A stretch of DNA of 64,000 nucleotides from a phage. Shown in pieces: positions 38,839 to 64,000 of this stretch. The position numbers and the translations under genes were made by a program. Under the pieces are notes generated by a model that saw only the letters and a list, made by a program, of their open reading frames with translations, was not told where the DNA came from and searched no databases. The stretch is from sequence record PZ445435.1. The stretch is one strand, 5' to 3'. Position 1 is the first letter of the stretch; every line of letters starts with the position of its first letter.

Positions 38839-39396
38839 TTAAATGGAAAGATACCATCCGTTGTAGTTGCTTTTTCTTACAACCCTACGAAGGTCTTCTC
38901 TGTCACCGATGAACTTCGGAGTGTACTGGATGACACCTGGATGAATTTCTTTAGTGTTGAATATAATTATACAGTCAGCGACTTGATGATTTAGAATGGG
39001 CCCTAAATTTATTCCAGAACCATATGGATACTCTCCGCTGCATCCCGTTGTTACCGAAATCCAACGCGAGTCAGTTTGATGTGTTTTGACTTCTACACGA
39101 AGCCCGCAATATTTTGGATGCGCTAAAACATCCCATGCATACGTGTACGGATCATCGACATTTTCTTGGCCTTTATTGACATATCCGCTTAGCCAATCTG
39201 CCACAAAAAACTCTGCGTACACAGCGATACGGCATCTTTCGATAACTTCTGCTTTATCCTGGTTCGGGTTTTGTTTTAAAGAGTATCTTGCTGTATCAGC
39301 AATTTTGACCTTCATTTCACTAGTCAAGTCACTGTTCGATAGGGTAAATGTCGGAATCTGAAATAGTCTCTGTAAACCCGGATTCGTTTTCTGCAT
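38839..39396 (-). CDS. denB: probable endonuclease IV (DenB), by size and synteny
   Basis: 185 aa adjacent to rIIB. Confidence 0.55.
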   Translation of the reverse strand: MQKTNPGLQRLFQIPTFTLSNSDLTSEMKVKIADTARYSLKQNPNQDKAEVIERCRIAVYAEFFVADWLSGYVNKGQENVDDPYTYAWDVLAHPKYCGLRVEVKTHQTDSRWISVTTGCSGEYPYGSGINLGPILNHQVADCIIIFNTKEIHPGVIQYTPKFIGDREDLRRVVRKSNYNGWYLSI

Positions 39397-39443
39397 TTAA
39401 ACTTTCCTTTATGTCGGAATCATAATTTCTCTTAAAACAAAAG

Positions 39444-39462
39444 GGCCGAAGCCCTTATTTTA
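39444..39462 (-). terminator. hairpin AAGGGC-UUCG-GCCCUU followed by U-rich tract
   Basis: Perfect stem then UUGUUUU on minus strand. Confidence 0.45.
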
Positions 39463-39654
39463 TTTGAATTGTGCGATTCTTTTCTCTAGACACTCAGCAT
39501 AAGATTTCATTGAGATGAACTGTGAAAGCAGCAGTTCTTGCTCAACTGCACTAACCGTTAGAAACTTTGTGCTTTCTAAAAATTTGCTCAGTGCATTAAT
39601 TTTGAGCATTAATTGATCGTATTCTTCTTTTACTCGTGCTTGATAACCTAACAT
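39460..39654 (-). CDS. hypothetical protein (64 aa)
   Basis: ORF track. Confidence 0.4.
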   Translation of the reverse strand: MLGYQARVKEEYDQLMLKINALSKFLESTKFLTVSAVEQELLLSQFISMKSYAECLEKRIAQFK

Positions 39655-39667
39655 AATTTTCCTTAAT

Positions 39668-39690
39668 ATGATAAGGGCCGAAGCCCTTAT
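39668..39690 (-). promoter_or_regulatory. intercistronic UUCG stem-loop upstream of RBS
   Basis: UAAGGGC-UUCG-GCCCUUA perfect stem. Confidence 0.4.
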
Positions 39691-40625
39691 TTAAATTGTT
39701 CAGTAACGTCTTCAACTACTTCGTATTGGCAGGTACGCATTTTAGCATCGTTGTAATCAATCGGAATTGATACTACATCACGTGGATGTACTTTAACTTT
39801 TACAACTCGGCTGGTTGAACTGCCAAAGTGACGAATATAAGATTTAGAACACACATGCAGACCACGAGAACAAGTTTGTGTATCATCGTCATTTACACGA
39901 GTACGCGGCATTTTAACTACTTTACCAGGACTGTTATCAAAGGTGTTTGAGTGACAGTCAAAGTAGTTGTCACGAACTACTTTCCAAGCATAGAAGTAAC
40001 CATCTTCTGTAATTTCAATATCGTTTGCTACCAAGAAATCAAAGAGTCGAGATACCGCTTTCTGGCTTGGGTTTTCCAGCAGATTTTCCAAGAACGGAAA
40101 ATAAAATTCAAAGTTTTCACCTTTTTCCATCGAATCGAGAATACGATCAACTAAACCAGACCGTAATTCGATATTTTGATAGAACAAGCTTCCGCCTTCA
40201 ATTCGAACATCGCCGGAAATATATTTTTCAACAGCGCGACGAACATTAATTTTTTGTGCCGCTTCTTCCAACTTATCTGCTACAAGCAGATTAAGAATTT
40301 CCTGGAAGTTTGAATGAGTATTAGGAGTTGCGTTATAAGTTACACCGTCAACAGTAATTGAAATGAATTTTTTAGATGCATTCCAAATAATGTCAGATTT
40401 AGCAACTGGAGCAATAACTGCATCGCTATTAACTTTAATTGTAATATCACCGCTAATAGTAACTTTAGAGCGTTTAGCTTCTTCAGCATTTTTCAAAACA
40501 CGACGAATTGTGTCAACCGATACACCTTGCCAATCAGCCAATTCCTGTTGGGTGTAATTACCACTTGAATACAGCTTAACAATTTCAGCTTGTTCGTTTT
40601 TGGTCAGGCATTTAATATTGTACAT
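39687..40625 (-). CDS. rIIB: rIIB protein
   Basis: 312 aa; N-terminus and size match T4 rIIB. Confidence 0.9.
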   Translation of the reverse strand: MYNIKCLTKNEQAEIVKLYSSGNYTQQELADWQGVSVDTIRRVLKNAEEAKRSKVTISGDITIKVNSDAVIAPVAKSDIIWNASKKFISITVDGVTYNATPNTHSNFQEILNLLVADKLEEAAQKINVRRAVEKYISGDVRIEGGSLFYQNIELRSGLVDRILDSMEKGENFEFYFPFLENLLENPSQKAVSRLFDFLVANDIEITEDGYFYAWKVVRDNYFDCHSNTFDNSPGKVVKMPRTRVNDDDTQTCSRGLHVCSKSYIRHFGSSTSRVVKVKVHPRDVVSIPIDYNDAKMRTCQYEVVEDVTEQFK

Positions 40626-55979: not shown

Positions 55980-56170
55980 TTTGAATGCTCTATAATTAAT
56001 TTTAAAGCTTCTTCACTGACAAAAATTTCGTCAGGACCTTCTATAACTTCAACCATACGAAGTTGATTAGTTAAGAGCTCACATACGAGCTCCTTGTTAT
56101 AATCTTTAAATAGCTGGTCAATACGTTTCTTATGGGCTTTCTTAAGCTGACGCTTATTTAAACGAGCCAT
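55976..56170 (-). CDS. hypothetical protein (64 aa)
   Basis: ORF track. Confidence 0.4.
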   Translation of the reverse strand: MARLNKRQLKKAHKKRIDQLFKDYNKELVCELLTNQLRMVEVIEGPDEIFVSEEALKLIIEHSK

Positions 56171-56688
56171 TAATAACCTCGGTCTTGACGAGCGAAGTTT
56201 TCAGCATTTTTCAGATAATAAAGTTTAAATATTTCTTCAGCTGACATTCCAAGAGCAATGAATTTATTCATGAAAAAGTGAAATTGATCAATCAGTTCAA
56301 ATTTAATTTCAAGTTGATCTTCAGGAGATAAGTCTTGAATTTTCTTGGATTGCATTTCAGAATAACGTTTCTTCCAAGGTTTCCATACGGCAGAAGCTTC
56401 TTTTTCACCATTACTCATACCACCAAGAGAAGTATATAGCTCGCGAGTTTCATCTGCGATATAATCGTCTTGGTTTCGCAACCAAGCAAGAACTTCTCCT
56501 GCAGTTTCAAGTGAATCGGGATGACGATTTGTTTCTGGTTTATCATTAGCCAAACGAATCTGTAAATGCCGCTGCATATCAAGCATAACCTGCAATGGGT
56601 CAATACTGTGCATAATATACTCAGCATATGCACGATTTGCTTTATCAACACCTTCGATCAAATGAGCACATTCATTAAAGTGAGCCAT
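56170..56688 (-). CDS. 56: dCTPase/dUTPase gp56 (MazG-like pyrophosphatase)
   Basis: 172 aa from internal ATG with AAGGA SD; track N-terminal extension is hydrophobic. Confidence 0.75.
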   Translation of the reverse strand: MAHFNECAHLIEGVDKANRAYAEYIMHSIDPLQVMLDMQRHLQIRLANDKPETNRHPDSLETAGEVLAWLRNQDDYIADETRELYTSLGGMSNGEKEASAVWKPWKKRYSEMQSKKIQDLSPEDQLEIKFELIDQFHFFMNKFIALGMSAEEIFKLYYLKNAENFARQDRGY

Positions 56689-56759
56689 TATTTTTCCTTT
56701 CAATTCATGGGTTAGTAGATTAATTATACAATAAATATATAAAGCAATAAGGAGGACAT

Positions 56760-56960
56760 ATGGTACAAAAATTAATGGCACTTGTTAATGCCATAAAAGG
56801 TAATAAGAAACGTATAGCTTTTACTATTTCTGCTATGGTAGGAATTTTACTCTGGAACTTTATTTTATCACCTGTTGCAATTGCACATGGTATTAATATT
56901 CCAGTAGTTACTCTTGATACATTCGTAGATTTAGCATTTGCTTTAGTTGGGTTAATTTAA
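56760..56960 (+). CDS. small membrane protein (66 aa) on plus strand in the 56-61 gap
   Basis: Strong AAGGAGG SD 7 nt upstream of ATG; two hydrophobic segments. Confidence 0.35.
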   Translation: MVQKLMALVNAIKGNKKRIAFTISAMVGILLWNFILSPVAIAHGINIPVVTLDTFVDLAFALVGLI

Positions 56961-57985
56961 ATCTTAGCATATTTAGATAGCCGCATTTTAGCCATCAACC
57001 CCTGGGCAATATTATTTTTCATATATTCCATAATTTGTTCAGGGGTTGCACCTTCCTTTCTAATCATATCATTAACATCTTTTGATTTCCAGGGAGATTT
57101 ATCCCAAAACATAACCCTTTCTCCTGCATCAACTAATTTAGTCATTCGTTTGATAGTGTCAGGGTGACGAGGTTCATTATCTAAAACCCACACTCGTCTA
57201 TCTTTAAATGGAACAACTTCTAGGTCTAATTGACCACCCGTAATAGCTATACCATTTTCAATAAAAAGTGAATCTATAGGTCCTTCTAGAACATATACAT
57301 CACCATCTTTAACTCGTTCGACTCCATATATTTTTGTTGCCTCAGGATAAGCTTTGATGGTGATATATTTTTGAGGAGCATCTTTCTTTAATGCACGTCC
57401 TTGAAAAGACTCAGCTTTTCCATTAGCATTATAAATTGGAATAACAAGACGAGGCTCAGAAATTTCCTTTTTGTATGTTCCCGGTGCTATGCTATTAACT
57501 AATTTAGGCCATTCGGTTGTAAACCAAAGATATTTCCATTTATCCTTTGGAATACAACGAGCTTTTACATATTTTATAATTGGATGGTCTTCCGCCAGTT
57601 TATCTAATCTAACGCATGACGGAAGAGATTTAATTATTTTCTTCTCAGGTTGTTTAGGAAGTTCTTTAGGTTTTTCTACTGGACGACTTTTACCTTTTTC
57701 TTTTCTTATTTCAAAGATATACTCACGATATAAATCAGGTTCAAACTCCTTTAAATATATTCCGATTGGTGCATGATAGTTACAGTTATAACAATGAATA
57801 TTTCCTTCATTATTATCACCATAATACCATCCACGAGCTTTATTCTGGTCGGTTTTTGAATCTCCACAAACAGGGCATCTAAACCGTAATTTAAAAGTTG
57901 AACTATTATTTACTTGTGTGAATTTAGGTAAATGAGCTAATGCACGGTATGCAAACTCATTATCAATCCAAGGTATTGATGACAT
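56957..57985 (-). CDS. 61: DNA primase gp61
   Basis: 342 aa; N-terminal CxxC...CxxC zinc ribbon plus TOPRIM. Confidence 0.9.
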   Translation of the reverse strand: MSSIPWIDNEFAYRALAHLPKFTQVNNSSTFKLRFRCPVCGDSKTDQNKARGWYYGDNNEGNIHCYNCNYHAPIGIYLKEFEPDLYREYIFEIRKEKGKSRPVEKPKELPKQPEKKIIKSLPSCVRLDKLAEDHPIIKYVKARCIPKDKWKYLWFTTEWPKLVNSIAPGTYKKEISEPRLVIPIYNANGKAESFQGRALKKDAPQKYITIKAYPEATKIYGVERVKDGDVYVLEGPIDSLFIENGIAITGGQLDLEVVPFKDRRVWVLDNEPRHPDTIKRMTKLVDAGERVMFWDKSPWKSKDVNDMIRKEGATPEQIMEYMKNNIAQGLMAKMRLSKYAKI

Positions 57986-57987
57986 TT

Positions 57988-58152
57988 TTACTCTTCTTTT
58001 TCTTTAGATTCCTCTTTTTTCTTTTTAGGAATCTGTTCAGGACCTTTATTTACTACAGCGCCTGACGTTGTTCCAGTAGAGATATTTTCAGGATTACCAC
58101 CTGAATCTCCAGCGACCATATCTTCTTTGATAAATTCTTTATATGTTTTCAT
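57988..58152 (-). CDS. small hydrophilic Lys/Glu-rich ORF (54 aa, not in track)
   Basis: Own translation. Confidence 0.3.
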   Translation of the reverse strand: MKTYKEFIKEDMVAGDSGGNPENISTGTTSGAVVNKGPEQIPKKKKEESKEKEE

Positions 58153-58153
58153 A

Positions 58154-58510
58154 TTAACCTCTATTCATAAAAGCATTAAAAATTTGGTCATCAATAGATG
58201 GTGCAGTAATATTTTCTGCATCATTTAGCAAATCATTAATTTCATCAGATAGCATAACACATGTACCTTTATTTCCTGTAATTGTTACTGCACAATTACG
58301 AACGTTTTCTTTATCAAATTTTAGGTTAATATTTTCGTAGTGAAAATCCTTTAATGCCGAATATATCTTTAAAATAAAATTGTCTTTTACTACAATAAAC
58401 CCAACCTCACTATTAAAACGTGGTTCATGGAAACTGTAATAAACCTTTTCATCTATAAAATCGTATGAAATTTTTTCCATTTTTAAATATGAAAATTCAG
58501 AACTATACAT
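58154..58510 (-). CDS. hypothetical protein (118 aa), single-domain paralogue of next ORF
   Basis: Shares FIVVKDN-type core and C-terminal SIDDQIFNAFMNRG with 215-aa neighbour. Confidence 0.5.
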   Translation of the reverse strand: MYSSEFSYLKMEKISYDFIDEKVYYSFHEPRFNSEVGFIVVKDNFILKIYSALKDFHYENINLKFDKENVRNCAVTITGNKGTCVMLSDEINDLLNDAENITAPSIDDQIFNAFMNRG

Positions 58511-58511
58511 A

Positions 58512-59159
58512 TTAACCTTTATTCATAAAAGCATTAAAAATTTGATCGTCAATAGAAACTTTTACTTTAGGCTGTTCTTCAAACGGTAATTCATATCCAC
58601 ATATTACAATTTTGTGATCGATACCAAAATACACAGAAGCAATATGATTAATATTATTTTCAGTGAAATCTAAATCAACATCAATATCTTTTTGACTAAC
58701 GCTCAAAGGATAATTAATACGAATAATTCGATTATCTTTAACAAAGATTCCACCGACATACTCTGTGTTGCGTTTAAAGTTTACACGTTTCCTAAATGAA
58801 AAATATTCAGGTTCTTTATGAGCCCGACTCATAGGACACAATGAGTAGCTAGAATAAGAGATGTCAAATCCTACACCTTCAATATGAATATGAGCCAACG
58901 TGTCATGATTAAACCAATTATAATCATATGCCAAATCCATTATATTGTAATATGTGAAAGGCACCGGATTAACATCATATGTTGTACCTTTAAAATCTGC
59001 CCAGGCAACGATTTCGTTATCTTTAACAATTACAAAAATTGTGCCAATAAGATATCCACGGTTATTTTCATCAGGTGTTATATTATAACATTGTGCATCA
59101 GGAAATTTACCGTATTTAAACGGTGGATTTTTGTGCATATAATAAATCATATTATTCAC
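58512..59159 (-). CDS. hypothetical protein (215 aa), two-domain paralogue
   Basis: Internal duplication; identical C-terminal 14-aa module. Confidence 0.5.
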   Translation of the reverse strand: MNNMIYYMHKNPPFKYGKFPDAQCYNITPDENNRGYLIGTIFVIVKDNEIVAWADFKGTTYDVNPVPFTYYNIMDLAYDYNWFNHDTLAHIHIEGVGFDISYSSYSLCPMSRAHKEPEYFSFRKRVNFKRNTEYVGGIFVKDNRIIRINYPLSVSQKDIDVDLDFTENNINHIASVYFGIDHKIVICGYELPFEEQPKVKVSIDDQIFNAFMNKG

Positions 59160-59445
59160 CTGTGATTTCGGTTACGATATTTTTGTTATTAAAGTTTTTA
59201 TCGCAATACAGAACATAATTATACTGCATTACACCACCAGACTTAAGTTGTTTTTGCACTTCAGCTTTCATTTCAGGACGATCGCGCTCAACGATATTCA
59301 TAATATCTGCTTCAATTTGGGTTTCAACTTCAGTCTGATCCGCAGTCATAGACCATTCGCACAAATCTTTATCATAGCCTGCCATAGCAGGCTGAGCAGC
59401 ACAAGAAGCCAAAGTAAAAATTGTAGCAAAAATAAATTTTTTCAT
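59152..59445 (-). CDS. sp: probable Spackle (periplasmic superinfection-exclusion protein)
   Basis: 97 aa with cleavable signal peptide; position between 61 and 41. Confidence 0.55.
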   Translation of the reverse strand: MKKFIFATIFTLASCAAQPAMAGYDKDLCEWSMTADQTEVETQIEADIMNIVERDRPEMKAEVQKQLKSGGVMQYNYVLYCDKNFNNKNIVTEITGE

Positions 59446-59505
59446 GATAATCTCCTCAGTAGTTTATGTTTATATAGTATCTCAATTTCCAACAAAAGTA
59501 AACAG

Positions 59506-59805
59506 CTATTTTAAAACTTCTGCATAATCACATGTTACAAACTGTTTCTCTAGCTTGACGATTTTACGAAAGTATCTTTTGCATTGGCGAATCTGTCGCT
59601 TCGTGGGGCGAACAGCAAACTTAATAAATTCCACTCGACCAAATGGAGGACTTTCTTCTGCTGGAATATCTAACACCAATTCCCACGTATCTGCAATAAG
59701 TGCTTTGAATTGAGTATTTTTCCTGACGTTATACGGAGTAGGTTTAAATAAAACAATATGCATATTATCCTCGGCAATCCACTTCGCACACTTTCTTGTC
59801 ATCAA
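59506..59805 (-). CDS. hypothetical protein (99 aa)
   Basis: ORF track. Confidence 0.45.
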   Translation of the reverse strand: MMTRKCAKWIAEDNMHIVLFKPTPYNVRKNTQFKALIADTWELVLDIPAEESPPFGRVEFIKFAVRPTKRQIRQCKRYFRKIVKLEKQFVTCDYAEVLK

Positions 59806-59947
59806 TGAAAGCTTTAACTAATGCTTTATTAACTTCAGCATATTGAGTAGTAGCCCATTGAACGTCATCTTTCATCATTGTGATTTCTTTAGTAAACATG
59901 CTTTCATTCTTAAACCACCCCATAAAAACTACCTTTACCAATTCCAT
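59765..59947 (-). CDS. hypothetical protein (60 aa)
   Basis: ORF track. Confidence 0.4.
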   Translation of the reverse strand: MELVKVVFMGWFKNESMFTKEITMMKDDVQWATTQYAEVNKALVKAFIDDKKVCEVDCRG

Positions 59948-59976
59948 AACAATCTCCTCATTTAACCAACAAGACT

Positions 59977-60006
59977 ACTATACCATAGTCTTGTCAGCTT
60001 GTAAAC
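59977..60006 (-). promoter_or_regulatory. T4-type early promoter (GTTTACA, TATAGT within inverted repeat AAGACTA...TAGTCTT)
   Basis: Motif and spacing; overlaps gene 41 stop. Confidence 0.55.
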
Positions 60007-61433
60007 TAAAATTTTAATTCATTTGCCAAAGCATCTAACTGAGCTCGAGTGGATTCATTTCTTTGATAGCGATTCTGCTCAGCCTGAATCTGTTGTGAAC
60101 CTGCTACTTCACTCACTTCAGTTGGAGTAGAATCTTGTTCAATTTCTACCCATTTTTGATTTCCTTTTTGAACACCCATCAAAAACTTATTCCACTTATT
60201 CTTATCACCATATCGTGATTTGATTTGCTTAATGAGTTGTTGTTCAGCAGCTGCTAGCTCCTCGGTTTCAATGACCGCAAGCATAAAATCAGCTGTTGCT
60301 GGAAGACCAGCAGATTCTGCAATATCGCTCATGTTAACATCGGAAGAGTCCCAAGCTTGTTTACCAACCTGTGCTGCAGTCCAAAGAACAGTTTCGGTTT
60401 CAACAGCCAGAGCACGCAATTCCTCTGCGATAGCTTTAACAGTTGTGTAACTATTTTCTGAATAAACTCTAATGCGGCAAGATTTACAAATACCTAGATA
60501 GTCGACAATAATGATTGTTGGAACAAAATTCTTCTTGAGCTTTAATTCATTTAAAAGTGATCGAAATGTATTAGCGTCTGCTCCACCAGTAGGATATTGC
60601 TTAACGATTAAACGACCAAGGGTAGATTTCTCACGCCATTTTTCCATTTTTCCTTTATACTCAGCGTAAGAAATATGCCCATCATCAATGTCATCAAGAG
60701 AAACATCGAGCATGTTAGCATCAATACGTTTAGCACAGACTTCTTCTGCCATTTCCATGGAGATATAAAGAACGTTATGACCAAGCTGCAAATAATCTGC
60801 TGCCAATGAACACAGACCTAATGACTTACCAACGTTAACGCCAGCCATTAAAACGTTCAGTGTTCCAGTCTCAGCTCCACCTTTCGTAATTTTGTTTAGA
60901 ATTCTGAGTTTAAATGGAACCTTACGAGCTTTATTCATATAAGATAGCCAACGCGCTTCATAGTCATCCATCCAATCATGACCAACGTAGCTATCAAATG
61001 AAATTGATAATGCTTGGCGCATGATGTCAGGAATAGCACCTACATCTGGCATTTTCTTATTTCGTTTTTCCGGAGGAAGCTCAGCATTAGTTTGAATTTC
61101 GATTATTTTAGACGTAGCATTAAACATCGCCCTTTGCTGAACATATTTTTCTGTTTCTTTTACTAACCAGCTGTGGTCTTCTGGAGAATCAGCCAGTTTT
61201 GAAATAAGTGTTTTTACACCAGAATATTCTGTTTCAGTAAATGAACTATTTTCTAATGCAACATTTAACGCATTAATAGATGGAACGCTATGATACTCAT
61301 TAACATGAGATTTAATTAATTTGAATGTATTTTTAGCTGGACCACTTTCAAAATATTCTGAATCCATATATGGCCAAACTTTTGAAAAATAAGCTTGATC
61401 AAATATGAGATGAGAAAGAATAATTTCTACCAC
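60006..61433 (-). CDS. 41: replicative DNA helicase gp41 (DnaB family)
   Basis: 475 aa; GVNVGKS Walker A; GTG start codon. Confidence 0.95.
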   Translation of the reverse strand: MVEIILSHLIFDQAYFSKVWPYMDSEYFESGPAKNTFKLIKSHVNEYHSVPSINALNVALENSSFTETEYSGVKTLISKLADSPEDHSWLVKETEKYVQQRAMFNATSKIIEIQTNAELPPEKRNKKMPDVGAIPDIMRQALSISFDSYVGHDWMDDYEARWLSYMNKARKVPFKLRILNKITKGGAETGTLNVLMAGVNVGKSLGLCSLAADYLQLGHNVLYISMEMAEEVCAKRIDANMLDVSLDDIDDGHISYAEYKGKMEKWREKSTLGRLIVKQYPTGGADANTFRSLLNELKLKKNFVPTIIIVDYLGICKSCRIRVYSENSYTTVKAIAEELRALAVETETVLWTAAQVGKQAWDSSDVNMSDIAESAGLPATADFMLAVIETEELAAAEQQLIKQIKSRYGDKNKWNKFLMGVQKGNQKWVEIEQDSTPTEVSEVAGSQQIQAEQNRYQRNESTRAQLDALANELKF

Positions 61434-61442
61434 ACTTACTCC

Positions 61443-61799
61443 TTAAAAGAATTTAAATTTTTTCTTTGACCTTTTATTAAATGCATCTTGCAGTTGCATT
61501 GTAATACATTTTTCTACATGAGGAGCTAACTCAGCTTTTCTTTCTTGGTCAAGAACAGCAAAGTCCATTACGACTTTTCCATCAACCCAATCTAATTTTG
61601 TCACATACACAATGTGTGTAGAACCATCTTCTAGTTTAATGACAATCTCCTGGATAACATTTTCCATGGCAGATTTAATTATCTTAAGAGATTCATTAAA
61701 AAGACGTTCTTTTCTTTCTTCTTCCCCCTCCGAAGAGGGGGATTCATCGATAATTTCTAAATCTAAATCATCTTTACTCATTAAATTCTTCCATATCAC
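61443..61799 (-). CDS. 40: probable gp40 (head vertex assembly), by synteny
   Basis: 118 aa between 41 and uvsX. Confidence 0.5.
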   Translation of the reverse strand: MIWKNLMSKDDLDLEIIDESPSSEGEEERKERLFNESLKIIKSAMENVIQEIVIKLEDGSTHIVYVTKLDWVDGKVVMDFAVLDQERKAELAPHVEKCITMQLQDAFNKRSKKKFKFF

Positions 61800-62955
61800 T
61801 TAACTGCTCGAGGTCAGTTTCTAAATCAGCAGCTGATTTACTTTTACTTTCTGGAGATTTAAATTTTTCAACCTTTGAGTTAATCAATTCATCAACTTCA
61901 GCTTCAACAATTTCATTACTATCAATAGCACCTAACTGATAAGCACGTTTAATAGCATCTCGGAATGGTTGATGCTTAAATAAAGGACCCCAGAATGTAG
62001 TGCAGTTGGTATCTTTTGCACGCCAAGATTTTTCTTCGCGAATCATCTCGCCGGTTTCTTCATCAAGAAATTCACGAGCATACCAGCCATTTTTAGGTTT
62101 TACCACGAATCCTAATTCTAAAGCCATATCTAACAATCCAGAATAAGGATCGATACCACCGTCAAATTTAACATCAATAAAGAATTTACTTTTTTCTTTA
62201 ACGGTACGAGATTTTTCTACATTTAGAACAAATTGATACCCCTGAAGATCAGAACCATCTTTAATCTGACGCTTACCGATAATGAATACAGTATCAGCCG
62301 AATACATTACGCCTGTACCACCTGTCATCACGGTTTTACTAAACATTTCAATTGTTTCAATTGTATGGTTAACCGCAACACATGGAATATTTTTAATGCT
62401 AAAGTAAGGAGTAACAATACGGAATAATGACTTCAGTGATTTAGCACGAGTCATATCTGCCACAGATTTTTCATTCAAGGCATCTTCAGTTTCTTTCTTA
62501 GAAGCCATATTACCGATTGAGTCGATGAATACAATAACTTTTTCACCACGCTCAATATCTTCAAGCTGATTCACCATATCAATTTTCAGCTGTTCAACTG
62601 ACTGGATTGGCGTATGAATTACTCGTTCCGGGTCAACTCCCATGGATCGCAAATAAGCTGGAGTAATACCAAATTCGCTATCATAGAATAGACAAACCGC
62701 GTCAGGATATTTGTTCAAATACGCCGCAACCATAGTCAAAGACATATTTGATTTAAAGTGTTTAGAAGGCCCTGCGAAAATAGTTAAACCAGACTGCATA
62801 CCACCATCAATCGCACCAGAAATAGCAATATTAAGCATTGGGATTTTTGTACGGATTACATCCTTTTCATTAAAGAATTTAGATGTAGTCAGTTCAGCAG
62901 TCATTTTAGAAGTGGAAGCTTTAATCAAACGGGATTTTAAATCTGCAATAGACAT
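61774..62955 (-). CDS. uvsX: recombinase UvsX (RecA/Rad51 family)
   Basis: 393 aa; Walker A FAGPSKHFKS; matches recalled T4 UvsX. Confidence 0.95.
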   Translation of the reverse strand: MSIADLKSRLIKASTSKMTAELTTSKFFNEKDVIRTKIPMLNIAISGAIDGGMQSGLTIFAGPSKHFKSNMSLTMVAAYLNKYPDAVCLFYDSEFGITPAYLRSMGVDPERVIHTPIQSVEQLKIDMVNQLEDIERGEKVIVFIDSIGNMASKKETEDALNEKSVADMTRAKSLKSLFRIVTPYFSIKNIPCVAVNHTIETIEMFSKTVMTGGTGVMYSADTVFIIGKRQIKDGSDLQGYQFVLNVEKSRTVKEKSKFFIDVKFDGGIDPYSGLLDMALELGFVVKPKNGWYAREFLDEETGEMIREEKSWRAKDTNCTTFWGPLFKHQPFRDAIKRAYQLGAIDSNEIVEAEVDELINSKVEKFKSPESKSKSAADLETDLEQLSDMEEFNE

Positions 62956-63032
62956 TCATTTTTTCCATAGGCATCATTATATTTTCCTCACTGGTTAAAG
63001 ATAGAGTAATTATAACACAATAAATTTAGGCA

Positions 63033-63875
63033 TTAATCAACTGCTATTGGATGAATAGCATTAAACTTATGAAATGCTTCTGATTTTTCTTTGCGCGAAA
63101 CACACATGCGAAGAACCTTTAATGGCTCGTCTTCTTCACCCAACGATTTTCGTTTTTCAATATTAGAAGTTTTCCAACGAGCTTGCTCTGGAAACTCTCT
63201 ATTGATTTGCTCAAGCGCTCTATTATGTTTAGAATTACTACGAATTGAACTGCACCCGCCAGGAGCTTGTGCTTTTCCAGATACAACCAGATATTTGAAC
63301 AAGGCCAAATGCGGATAACCTTGATTAATTAAATTGAGAAATGCATACATATCTTCACATAAATCAATTTTTCCATACCCAATTTGTTCTGTCGTAAGTT
63401 TTCCGAGGTCATACCATGTATTCGTGAATCCATATGAATTTTCACGATAATTACCCCAAGATGAAGTAATTTTAAAAATAGGTAGACGAGCATGGCCATG
63501 ATAATACCCGCAATCCATAGCATCTTCAACGTATTGAATCAATTCGTAGAATTGTTCACGGGTTAATTGATTGACTTTATCTACACAGCGACGATCATCT
63601 CTTTTTCGCATTGAGCTCATACGAATCGTAGTATCATCGTCAATCATCCAGATTCGTTGACCTGCATACATATCAGTAATTGCTTTACGAGTACCGGCAA
63701 TTCCGTTTACATCATCAGGAATAGTTACAATTTTAGCTCTAGACCCATAGGCGTCATAATAAGCTTTTTCTTCATGTTCACGTACTACAATATGAGGTTC
63801 ATAATCAGTCGGAAACATATCAAGGGCAGAAACTGCCCCTACGCGTTGATAGCTCGGAATTACGAATTGAATCAT
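63033..63875 (-). CDS. GT-A fold (DxD) glycosyltransferase at the T4 beta-gt locus (about 280 aa)
   Basis: IWMIDDDTTI DxD motif; lies between uvsX and gene 42; does not resemble recalled T4 Bgt. Confidence 0.55.
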   Translation of the reverse strand: MIQFVIPSYQRVGAVSALDMFPTDYEPHIVVREHEEKAYYDAYGSRAKIVTIPDDVNGIAGTRKAITDMYAGQRIWMIDDDTTIRMSSMRKRDDRRCVDKVNQLTREQFYELIQYVEDAMDCGYYHGHARLPIFKITSSWGNYRENSYGFTNTWYDLGKLTTEQIGYGKIDLCEDMYAFLNLINQGYPHLALFKYLVVSGKAQAPGGCSSIRSNSKHNRALEQINREFPEQARWKTSNIEKRKSLGEEDEPLKVLRMCVSRKEKSEAFHKFNAIHPIAVD

Positions 63876-64000
63876 TTCCACTCACCGTTATAATCTTTTT
63901 TCACAATATGAGTTTCGCCAGTATTCCACCAATGATCAACCAAGTAAAAATGACGAGAATATACATGAAGACTTCCAACATTCCATATAATAGAACCTGC
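63872..64000 (-). CDS. 42: dCMP hydroxymethylase gp42, C-terminal 42 codons (partial)
   Basis: Own translation ...GSIIWNVGSLHVYSRHFYLVDHWWNTGETHIVKKDYNGEWK matches recalled T4 gp42 C-terminus. Confidence 0.65.
   Translation of the reverse strand, partial: AGSIIWNVGSLHVYSRHFYLVDHWWNTGETHIVKKDYNGEWK

Follow-up and report, generated by a model that had tools for sequence, protein, structure and literature searches.

The closest described relatives of the gene studied here are the ba-gt genes of phages T2 and T6, whose cloning and sequencing date from 1993 (Winkler & Rueger, PMID 8464751, as cited in PMC11946311). Their product, the beta-glucosyl-HMC-alpha-glucosyltransferase, is a member of the TAGT (TET-associated glycosyltransferase) family, adopts a GT-A fold according to AlphaFold3 and clusters beside GT2; alpha-GT and beta-GT are GT-B enzymes (PMC13216743). 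The function of the wider TAGT family has been called 'yet-to-be defined' (PMC13216743), and only within the T2/T6 clade is the biochemical assignment a firm one. LC-MS of phages including the Durham Tequatroviruses NR1 and Some found about one third hmdC and about two thirds alpha-gentiobiosyl-hmdC, with beta-glucosyl-hmdC undetected. These phages encode alpha-GT together with a TAGT protein whose position is syntenic with that of T4 beta-GT, and this TAGT was considered 'likely responsible' (PMC13390438). In T6 without ba-gt, alpha-glucosyl-hmC is reported as the modified base, the DNA can be degraded by Brig1 and the phage is more Brig1-sensitive (PMC11078745), and in a T6 g-gt deletion the alpha-glucose becomes accessible to the glucosidase BapA (PMC13160076). 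In vitro, gentiobiosyl-hmC withstands both the glycosylase Brig1 and the glucosidase BapA, but it is still cut by GmrSD-type enzymes. Published work already covers the enzyme, its product, the GT-A fold, the synteny with T4 b-gt and the bearing on restriction evasion, with fold, synteny and product treated in papers from 2024-2026 (PMC13216743, PMC13390438, PMC11078745).

The window, that is the whole 64,000-nucleotide stretch of phage DNA that was analysed, contains a gene of this type close to its end. We assign it, with a probability of roughly 0.93, as the ba-gt gene of Escherichia phage PaulHMueller (Bas45), encoding a T2/T6-type beta-glucosyl-HMC-alpha-glucosyltransferase that makes alpha-gentiobiosyl-hmC. 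The identity of the gene, its orthology, the fold of its product, the conserved residues and the genomic context come from our own analysis of this DNA. The source record MZ501098.1 already annotates the gene correctly, and identifying it holds nothing new.

The ba-gt locus of Bas45

Positions 56000-64000 of the window (8 kb) show 100% DNA identity with the genome of PaulHMueller (BASEL Bas45, MZ501098.1), a Tequatrovirus. The coordinates 63033-63875 are exactly those of the coding sequence bas45_0152 in that record, which is labelled "hmC beta-alpha-glucosyltransferase ba-gt". The longest open reading frame at this site (63033..63881, minus strand) begins with GTG and has 282 codons for amino acids; translation from the in-frame ATG at 63875 gives the 280 aa product MIQFVIPSYQRVGAV...IWMIDDDTTIRM...AIHPIAVD. 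The initial annotation had expected a protein of roughly 280 aa at these positions, in the slot between uvsX and gene 42 where T4 has its 351-aa b-gt. Both parts of this description agree with the minus-strand reading frame and with the two neighbouring genes, T4 having segA in addition. All feature coordinates are collected in Table 1.

Table 1. Features of the ba-gt locus and partner genes in the hmC pathway (window coordinates unless a locus is named).
Feature	Coordinates	Strand	Basis
ba-gt (= ggt, TAGT), complete CDS, 280 aa, beta-glucosyl-HMC-alpha-glucosyltransferase	63033..63875	-	ORF, source CDS, Pfam, PHROG, T2/T6 comparison, GT-A model
R11 codon, N-terminal 'IPSYQR' motif after strand 1	63843..63845	-	R11 invariant in 87 homologues
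D79-D80-D81 codons, DxD motif	63633..63641	-	sequence; conservation; position in model
E174-D175 codons ('CEDMY')	63351..63356	-	D175 invariant in 87 homologues
gene 42 3' end (dCMP hydroxymethylase), cut by window end	63872..64000	-	translation ...HIVKKDYNGEWK*; source annotation; Pfam Thymidylat_synt
uvsX (RecA-like recombinase), downstream neighbour	61774..62955	-	ORF; MZ501098.1 annotation
gene 56 dCTPase/dCDPase, bas45_0140	56170..56688 (L001 18171-18689; window = locus + 37999)	-	MZ501098.1 annotation
alpha-GT	L001 (MZ501098.1) 38942-40144, outside window, 13 kb from ba-gt	same strand as ba-gt	annotation; PF11440 at 4e-237

The order uvsX / ba-gt / gene 42 on the early-gene strand is common to Bas45, T6 and T2. 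Gene 42 lies upstream of ba-gt and its final codons read ...KKDYNGEWK*. Its TGA stop and the ATG of ba-gt overlap as ATGA (63872-63875) in both the window and T2, whereas the start of T4 b-gt lies 23 nt after the end of gene 42 (locus L004, 5456-5480). To judge by the sequence, the overlap suggests translational coupling of gene 42 and ba-gt. On the other side, b-gt and uvsX of T4 are separated by segA, a homing endonuclease gene; segA is absent in the window, where a spacer of 77 nt lies between uvsX and ba-gt. A promoter scan of the ba-gt region returned 8 candidates compared with 5.8 +/- 3.0 in shuffled sequence, which is not above expectation. Two plus-strand reading frames within ba-gt (63091-63318 and 63657-63893) were taken as mechanical antisense ORFs. 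A terminator scan additionally flagged a hairpin with a 9-bp stem (TAGGGGCAGTTTCTGCCCTTG) at 63821-63841 on the minus strand, in codons 12-18 of ba-gt and about 35 nt past its start. T2 and T6 have the hairpin in identical form, and it may represent an mRNA structure acting on translation or stability.

The gene 56 product is a member of the hmC pathway and keeps dC out of phage DNA. Within the 44 kb of MZ501098.1 annotation that we examined, ba-gt and a-gt are the sole glycosylation genes, and sugar-nucleotide synthesis genes were not found in that interval. A search for a T4 Bgt homologue across 82 kb (window plus L001) of the 170 kb genome returned none, with the T4 control being recovered. 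Two putative homing endonuclease genes (L001 33492-34379 and 38142-38765) are located outside the window, between ba-gt and a-gt, where they adjoin gene 45 and gene 47 of the replication-gene cluster.

Family membership, predicted fold and conserved residues

The product of ba-gt matches the Pfam family PF20691 (TAGT) with 38.1 bits, above the gathering threshold of 27.5 (E-value 2e-9). The match spans residues 3-207 and profile positions 2-205 of 205. It also matches PHROG 842, "beta-glucosyl-HMC-alpha-glucosyltransferase", at 3e-89. By tblastn, the gene was detected in 688 phage records, with a length coverage of 80% or more in 684, and such distribution identifies ba-gt as a real conserved gene and not a chance ORF. 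Around 470 of the 688 are Tequatrovirus-type records with an identity of at least 95%, and about 200 belong to phages of Klebsiella, Enterobacter, Salmonella and Citrobacter with approximately 65% identity. Exhaustive searching with HMMER identified 336 relatives compared with only 11 in a word-indexed protein search; 87 full-length ones were aligned for conservation analysis and structure prediction. All 87 match PF20691, and one touches the Pfam family Glycos_transf_2 (E = 0.008). The T-even clade forms a distant branch of the TAGT family with 20-35% identity to most members. The hmC on which ba-gt acts is supplied by gp42 at the level of the nucleotide and not by a TET/JBP dioxygenase.

GenBank labels for ba-gt are inconsistent, and many records mislabel the gene as a beta- or alpha-glucosyltransferase or as hypothetical. 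It appears as 'putative beta-glucosyltransferase' in teqsoen and KRT47, as 'alpha-glucosyl-transferase' in Ge15, under the gene name 'b-gt' in LC348380, RB7 and RB9, and as 'hypothetical protein' in RB14, RB51, ECML-134 and the T2 record AP018813.

Using the 87-sequence alignment, AlphaFold2 produced a model of the ba-gt product with a pLDDT of 95.2 and a pTM of 0.92; this run replaced one on the single sequence that was unusable (pLDDT 39). The model consists of a single Rossmann-like domain of alternating beta strands and alpha helices in which strand 74-78 (IWMID) leads straight into D79-D80-D81. The DxD motif is thereby placed where the fourth strand ends, as is canonical for GT-A enzymes. 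In a Foldseek comparison with solved structures, the best matches are the GT-A/GT2 enzymes RmlT, the fucosyltransferase WrtF, the chondroitin polymerase K4CP, TarS and TarP (E from 4e-6 to 5e-5, TM of about 0.5). For TarS, TarP, RmlT and K4CP the E-values are 4e-6 to 3e-5, over some 250-290 columns with 10-15% identity. Structurally related sugar nucleotidyltransferases (RmlA, thymidylyltransferases) are also present among the top PDB matches. Among viral models, the "Beta-glucosyl-HMC-alpha-glucosyl-transferase" of Klebsiella phage PKO111 matches best (TM 0.96), and TAGT-domain proteins come next (TM 0.65-0.75). Searching the PDB by sequence and by profile gave chance matches only (E of at least 0.5), with no solved member of the family among them. 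The initial annotation had read a GT-A-type DxD motif (MIDDDTTI) at this site and had called for structure prediction to look for a glycosyltransferase fold. The segment IWMIDDDTTIRM is indeed present, the TAGT profile scores above its gathering threshold and the model is that of a GT-A enzyme, so that ba-gt is predicted with high model confidence to be a GT-A fold glycosyltransferase with a DxD motif.

Four residues are invariant in the 87 homologues, namely R11, D80, D175 and G207. I6, P7, R63, D79, D81, G186, G206, R212 and P229 are near-invariant, the two outer aspartates of the DxD motif being conserved in at least 90% of sequences. The I-P-x-Y-x-R segment, the DxD motif and the "ED" pair (E174-D175) appear to resemble motifs of inverting GT2 enzymes. 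By analogy with such enzymes, ba-gt would be an inverting, metal-dependent GT-A glycosyltransferase in which D79-D80-D81 coordinate the divalent cation together with the diphosphate of UDP. The comparison with GT2 enzymes such as TarS, TarP and RmlT makes D175 a candidate for the catalytic base, and R11 of the IPSYQR motif would help to bind the nucleotide sugar. The acceptors are different, with the bacterial GT2 enzymes (TarS, TarP, RmlT, K4CP) acting on teichoic acid or polysaccharide and ba-gt on a sugar attached to DNA.

Alleles of Bas45, T2 and T6

The window allele is full length, carries Arg11 and an intact DDD motif and retains all family-invariant residues. T2 differs from it at three of 280 residues (R11H, V50I and P251S), and T6 MH550421, when read through, at four (Y40N, V50I, D55G and R106H) in addition to a stop at Q10. 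The NR1 enzyme differs at two residues and that of Some at three, and conserved positions are unaffected in both. This comparison with the Durham phages covers NR1 and Some; the group iii phages (Geo, EL and BGP, with a 1:2:2 ratio) were left out. A scan of IMG/VR yielded only 5 near-identical loci, a number too small for allele statistics, and allele counts were instead obtained by tblastn with 31-residue peptides. The Arg11 form of the N-terminal 31-mer found in the window is the majority allele, present in 338 records. The His11 form is found in 8 of approximately 680 records, all of them T2 or SV76, a phage with a genome of T2 size.

Unusual alleles are present in the classical laboratory phages. 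In T2, residue 11 is His in two separate records, AP018813 (locus L003, 4283-5125) and MH751506 (locus L006, 4286-5128). In T6 MH550421 (locus L002, 4138-4980), codon 10 is changed from CAA to TAG and the coding sequence is annotated from Met20 with 261 aa, which removes strand 1 and the invariant Arg11. This stop lies in the phage classically richest in gentiobiosyl-hmC. The second T6 record, AP018814 (locus L005, 4135-4974; apparently equal to RefSeq NC_054907), has an intact N-terminus and reads MIDDTTI due to the in-frame loss of one GAT from the GAC-GAT-GAT run coding for the DxD motif. No further phage record with the MIDDTTI allele was found. Both T6 lesions may be stock mutations or sequencing errors.

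T2 DNA contains about 5% gentiobiosyl-hmC compared with about 72% for T6, a classical observation made some 60 years ago (PMC13390438, PMC13160076). Since Arg11 is invariant in the family and His11 is confined to T2 and SV76, the low value of T2 makes R11H a candidate hypomorphic allele, and this substitution could be a cause of the low gentiobiosyl-hmC content of T2. A broader and tentative reading of the sequences, which we regard as possible and somewhat less probable than its opposite, is that the window allele represents the fully active natural form of ba-gt, that the classical laboratory phages carry compromised alleles and that His11 explains the value of about 5% in T2.

Lesions of this kind also raise the question of whether the Bas45 enzyme itself is weak or inactive, which would leave Bas45 DNA essentially mono-alpha-glucosylated. 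The lesions of the laboratory phages (T2 R11H, the Q10 stop of T6 MH550421 and the lost Asp of T6 AP018814) show that such alleles do occur, and some laboratory T2 and T6 stocks may have a weak or inactive enzyme. Brig1, to which Bas45 is sensitive, requires alpha-glucosyl-hmC (PMC11078745). Against this, the window allele is complete with every invariant residue in place, and its N-terminal 31-mer is the majority form. Wild-type T6 is moreover Brig1-sensitive in vivo despite its approximately 72% gentiobiosyl-hmC (PMC11078745), and Brig1 sensitivity is therefore no sign of an inactive ba-gt. We consider an inactive Bas45 enzyme improbable and favour a functional T2/T6-type ba-gt.

Acceptor, sugar and host defences

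T4 Bgt and ba-gt are both inverting enzymes that use UDP-glucose as donor and form a beta linkage on phage DNA adducts. The two genes share the slot beside gene 42 and differ in fold, GT-B for T4 Bgt versus GT-A for the window gene, and in acceptor, which is bare hmC for T4 Bgt and alpha-glucosyl-hmC for ba-gt. The initial annotation had held the protein to be distinct from T4 Bgt, and no similarity of the kind that would speak for Bgt was found. The best BLASTP alignment of ba-gt with T4 Bgt covers 8 residues at E = 2.2, and the Bgt Pfam domain gave no match in the ba-gt product even at E-values up to 10. On the BLASTP result and the absence of a Bgt homologue from the 82 kb searched, we reject the reading as a T4 Bgt homologue. 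The further suggestion of a T2/T6-type ba-gt has held up well, given the handful of differences from the T2 and read-through T6 MH550421 proteins, the PHROG 842 match and the annotation of the source genome.

Product and phenotypes are assigned to the Bas45 enzyme from the literature on near-identical enzymes. In the proposed pathway, gp42 would make hydroxymethyl-dCMP that is incorporated into phage DNA as hmC, with gp42 and gp56 together supplying the hmC DNA. The GT-B enzyme alpha-GT would put alpha-linked glucose on hmC, generating the acceptor for ba-gt, and ba-gt would extend this glucose by another one, donated by UDP-glucose and joined through a beta-1,6 linkage, yielding alpha-gentiobiosyl-hmC. 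The predicted effect is a T6-like modification pattern, as opposed to the mix of alpha- and beta-monoglucosyl-hmC in T4, which would change the set of host defences able to act on the DNA. Bas35-45, including Bas45, are restricted by Brig1 and Brig3 (PMC11078745, PMC13160076), which implies that the DNA of these phages contains alpha-glucosyl-hmC and bare hmC as well.

A GT-A replacement of T4 Bgt, with bare hmC as the direct acceptor of a single beta-glucose, would fit the genomic position of ba-gt in the T4 b-gt slot and the several GenBank records that name it 'putative beta-glucosyltransferase' or 'b-gt'. TAGT homologues also occur together with beta-GT or alone (PMC13216743), so that acceptor specificity may vary across the family. 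An enzyme of this specificity is, however, at odds with the phages whose TAGT is two to three residues away, in which beta-glucosyl-hmC is undetected and about one third of hmC is bare (PMC13390438). T6 without ba-gt is reported to contain only alpha-glucosylated hmC (PMC11078745), and about 25% of hmC remains bare in T2 and T6 despite the presence of ba-gt (PMC13160076). We judge direct beta-glucosylation of hmC by the window enzyme to be very unlikely. The transfer of a different sugar such as arabinose or another hexose, resulting in chemistry unlike that of T2/T6, is the least credible reading of all. In its favour, other phages have a diverse range of GT-A/TAGT relatives (20-35% identity), few of them characterised, and Mosigviruses of the same subfamily arabinosylate their DNA (PMC13390438). 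Against it, the enzyme is nearly identical to those of T2, NR1, Some and T6 MH550421 whose phages make gentiobiose adducts, the 44 kb of annotation holds no sugar-nucleotide synthesis genes and no glycosylation genes besides ba-gt and a-gt, and Bas35-45 behave as alpha-glucosyl-hmC phages towards Brig1 (PMC11078745). Another sugar transferase, which the initial annotation had kept as an alternative, consequently finds no support, and a T2/T6-type ba-gt acting on alpha-glucosyl-hmC remains the preferred assignment.

If the laboratory alleles are indeed compromised, the gentiobiosyl content of Bas45 DNA would be high and T6-like; this would represent allelic variation of a known enzyme and not a new type of system. 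Which host defences a T-even phage escapes, among them Brig1, Brig3/BapA, GmrSD/BrxU, McrBC and CRISPR-Cas, depends on the kind of sugar that its hmC carries, and the T6-type set of alpha-GT and ba-gt is therefore useful for predicting the restriction profile of Bas45.
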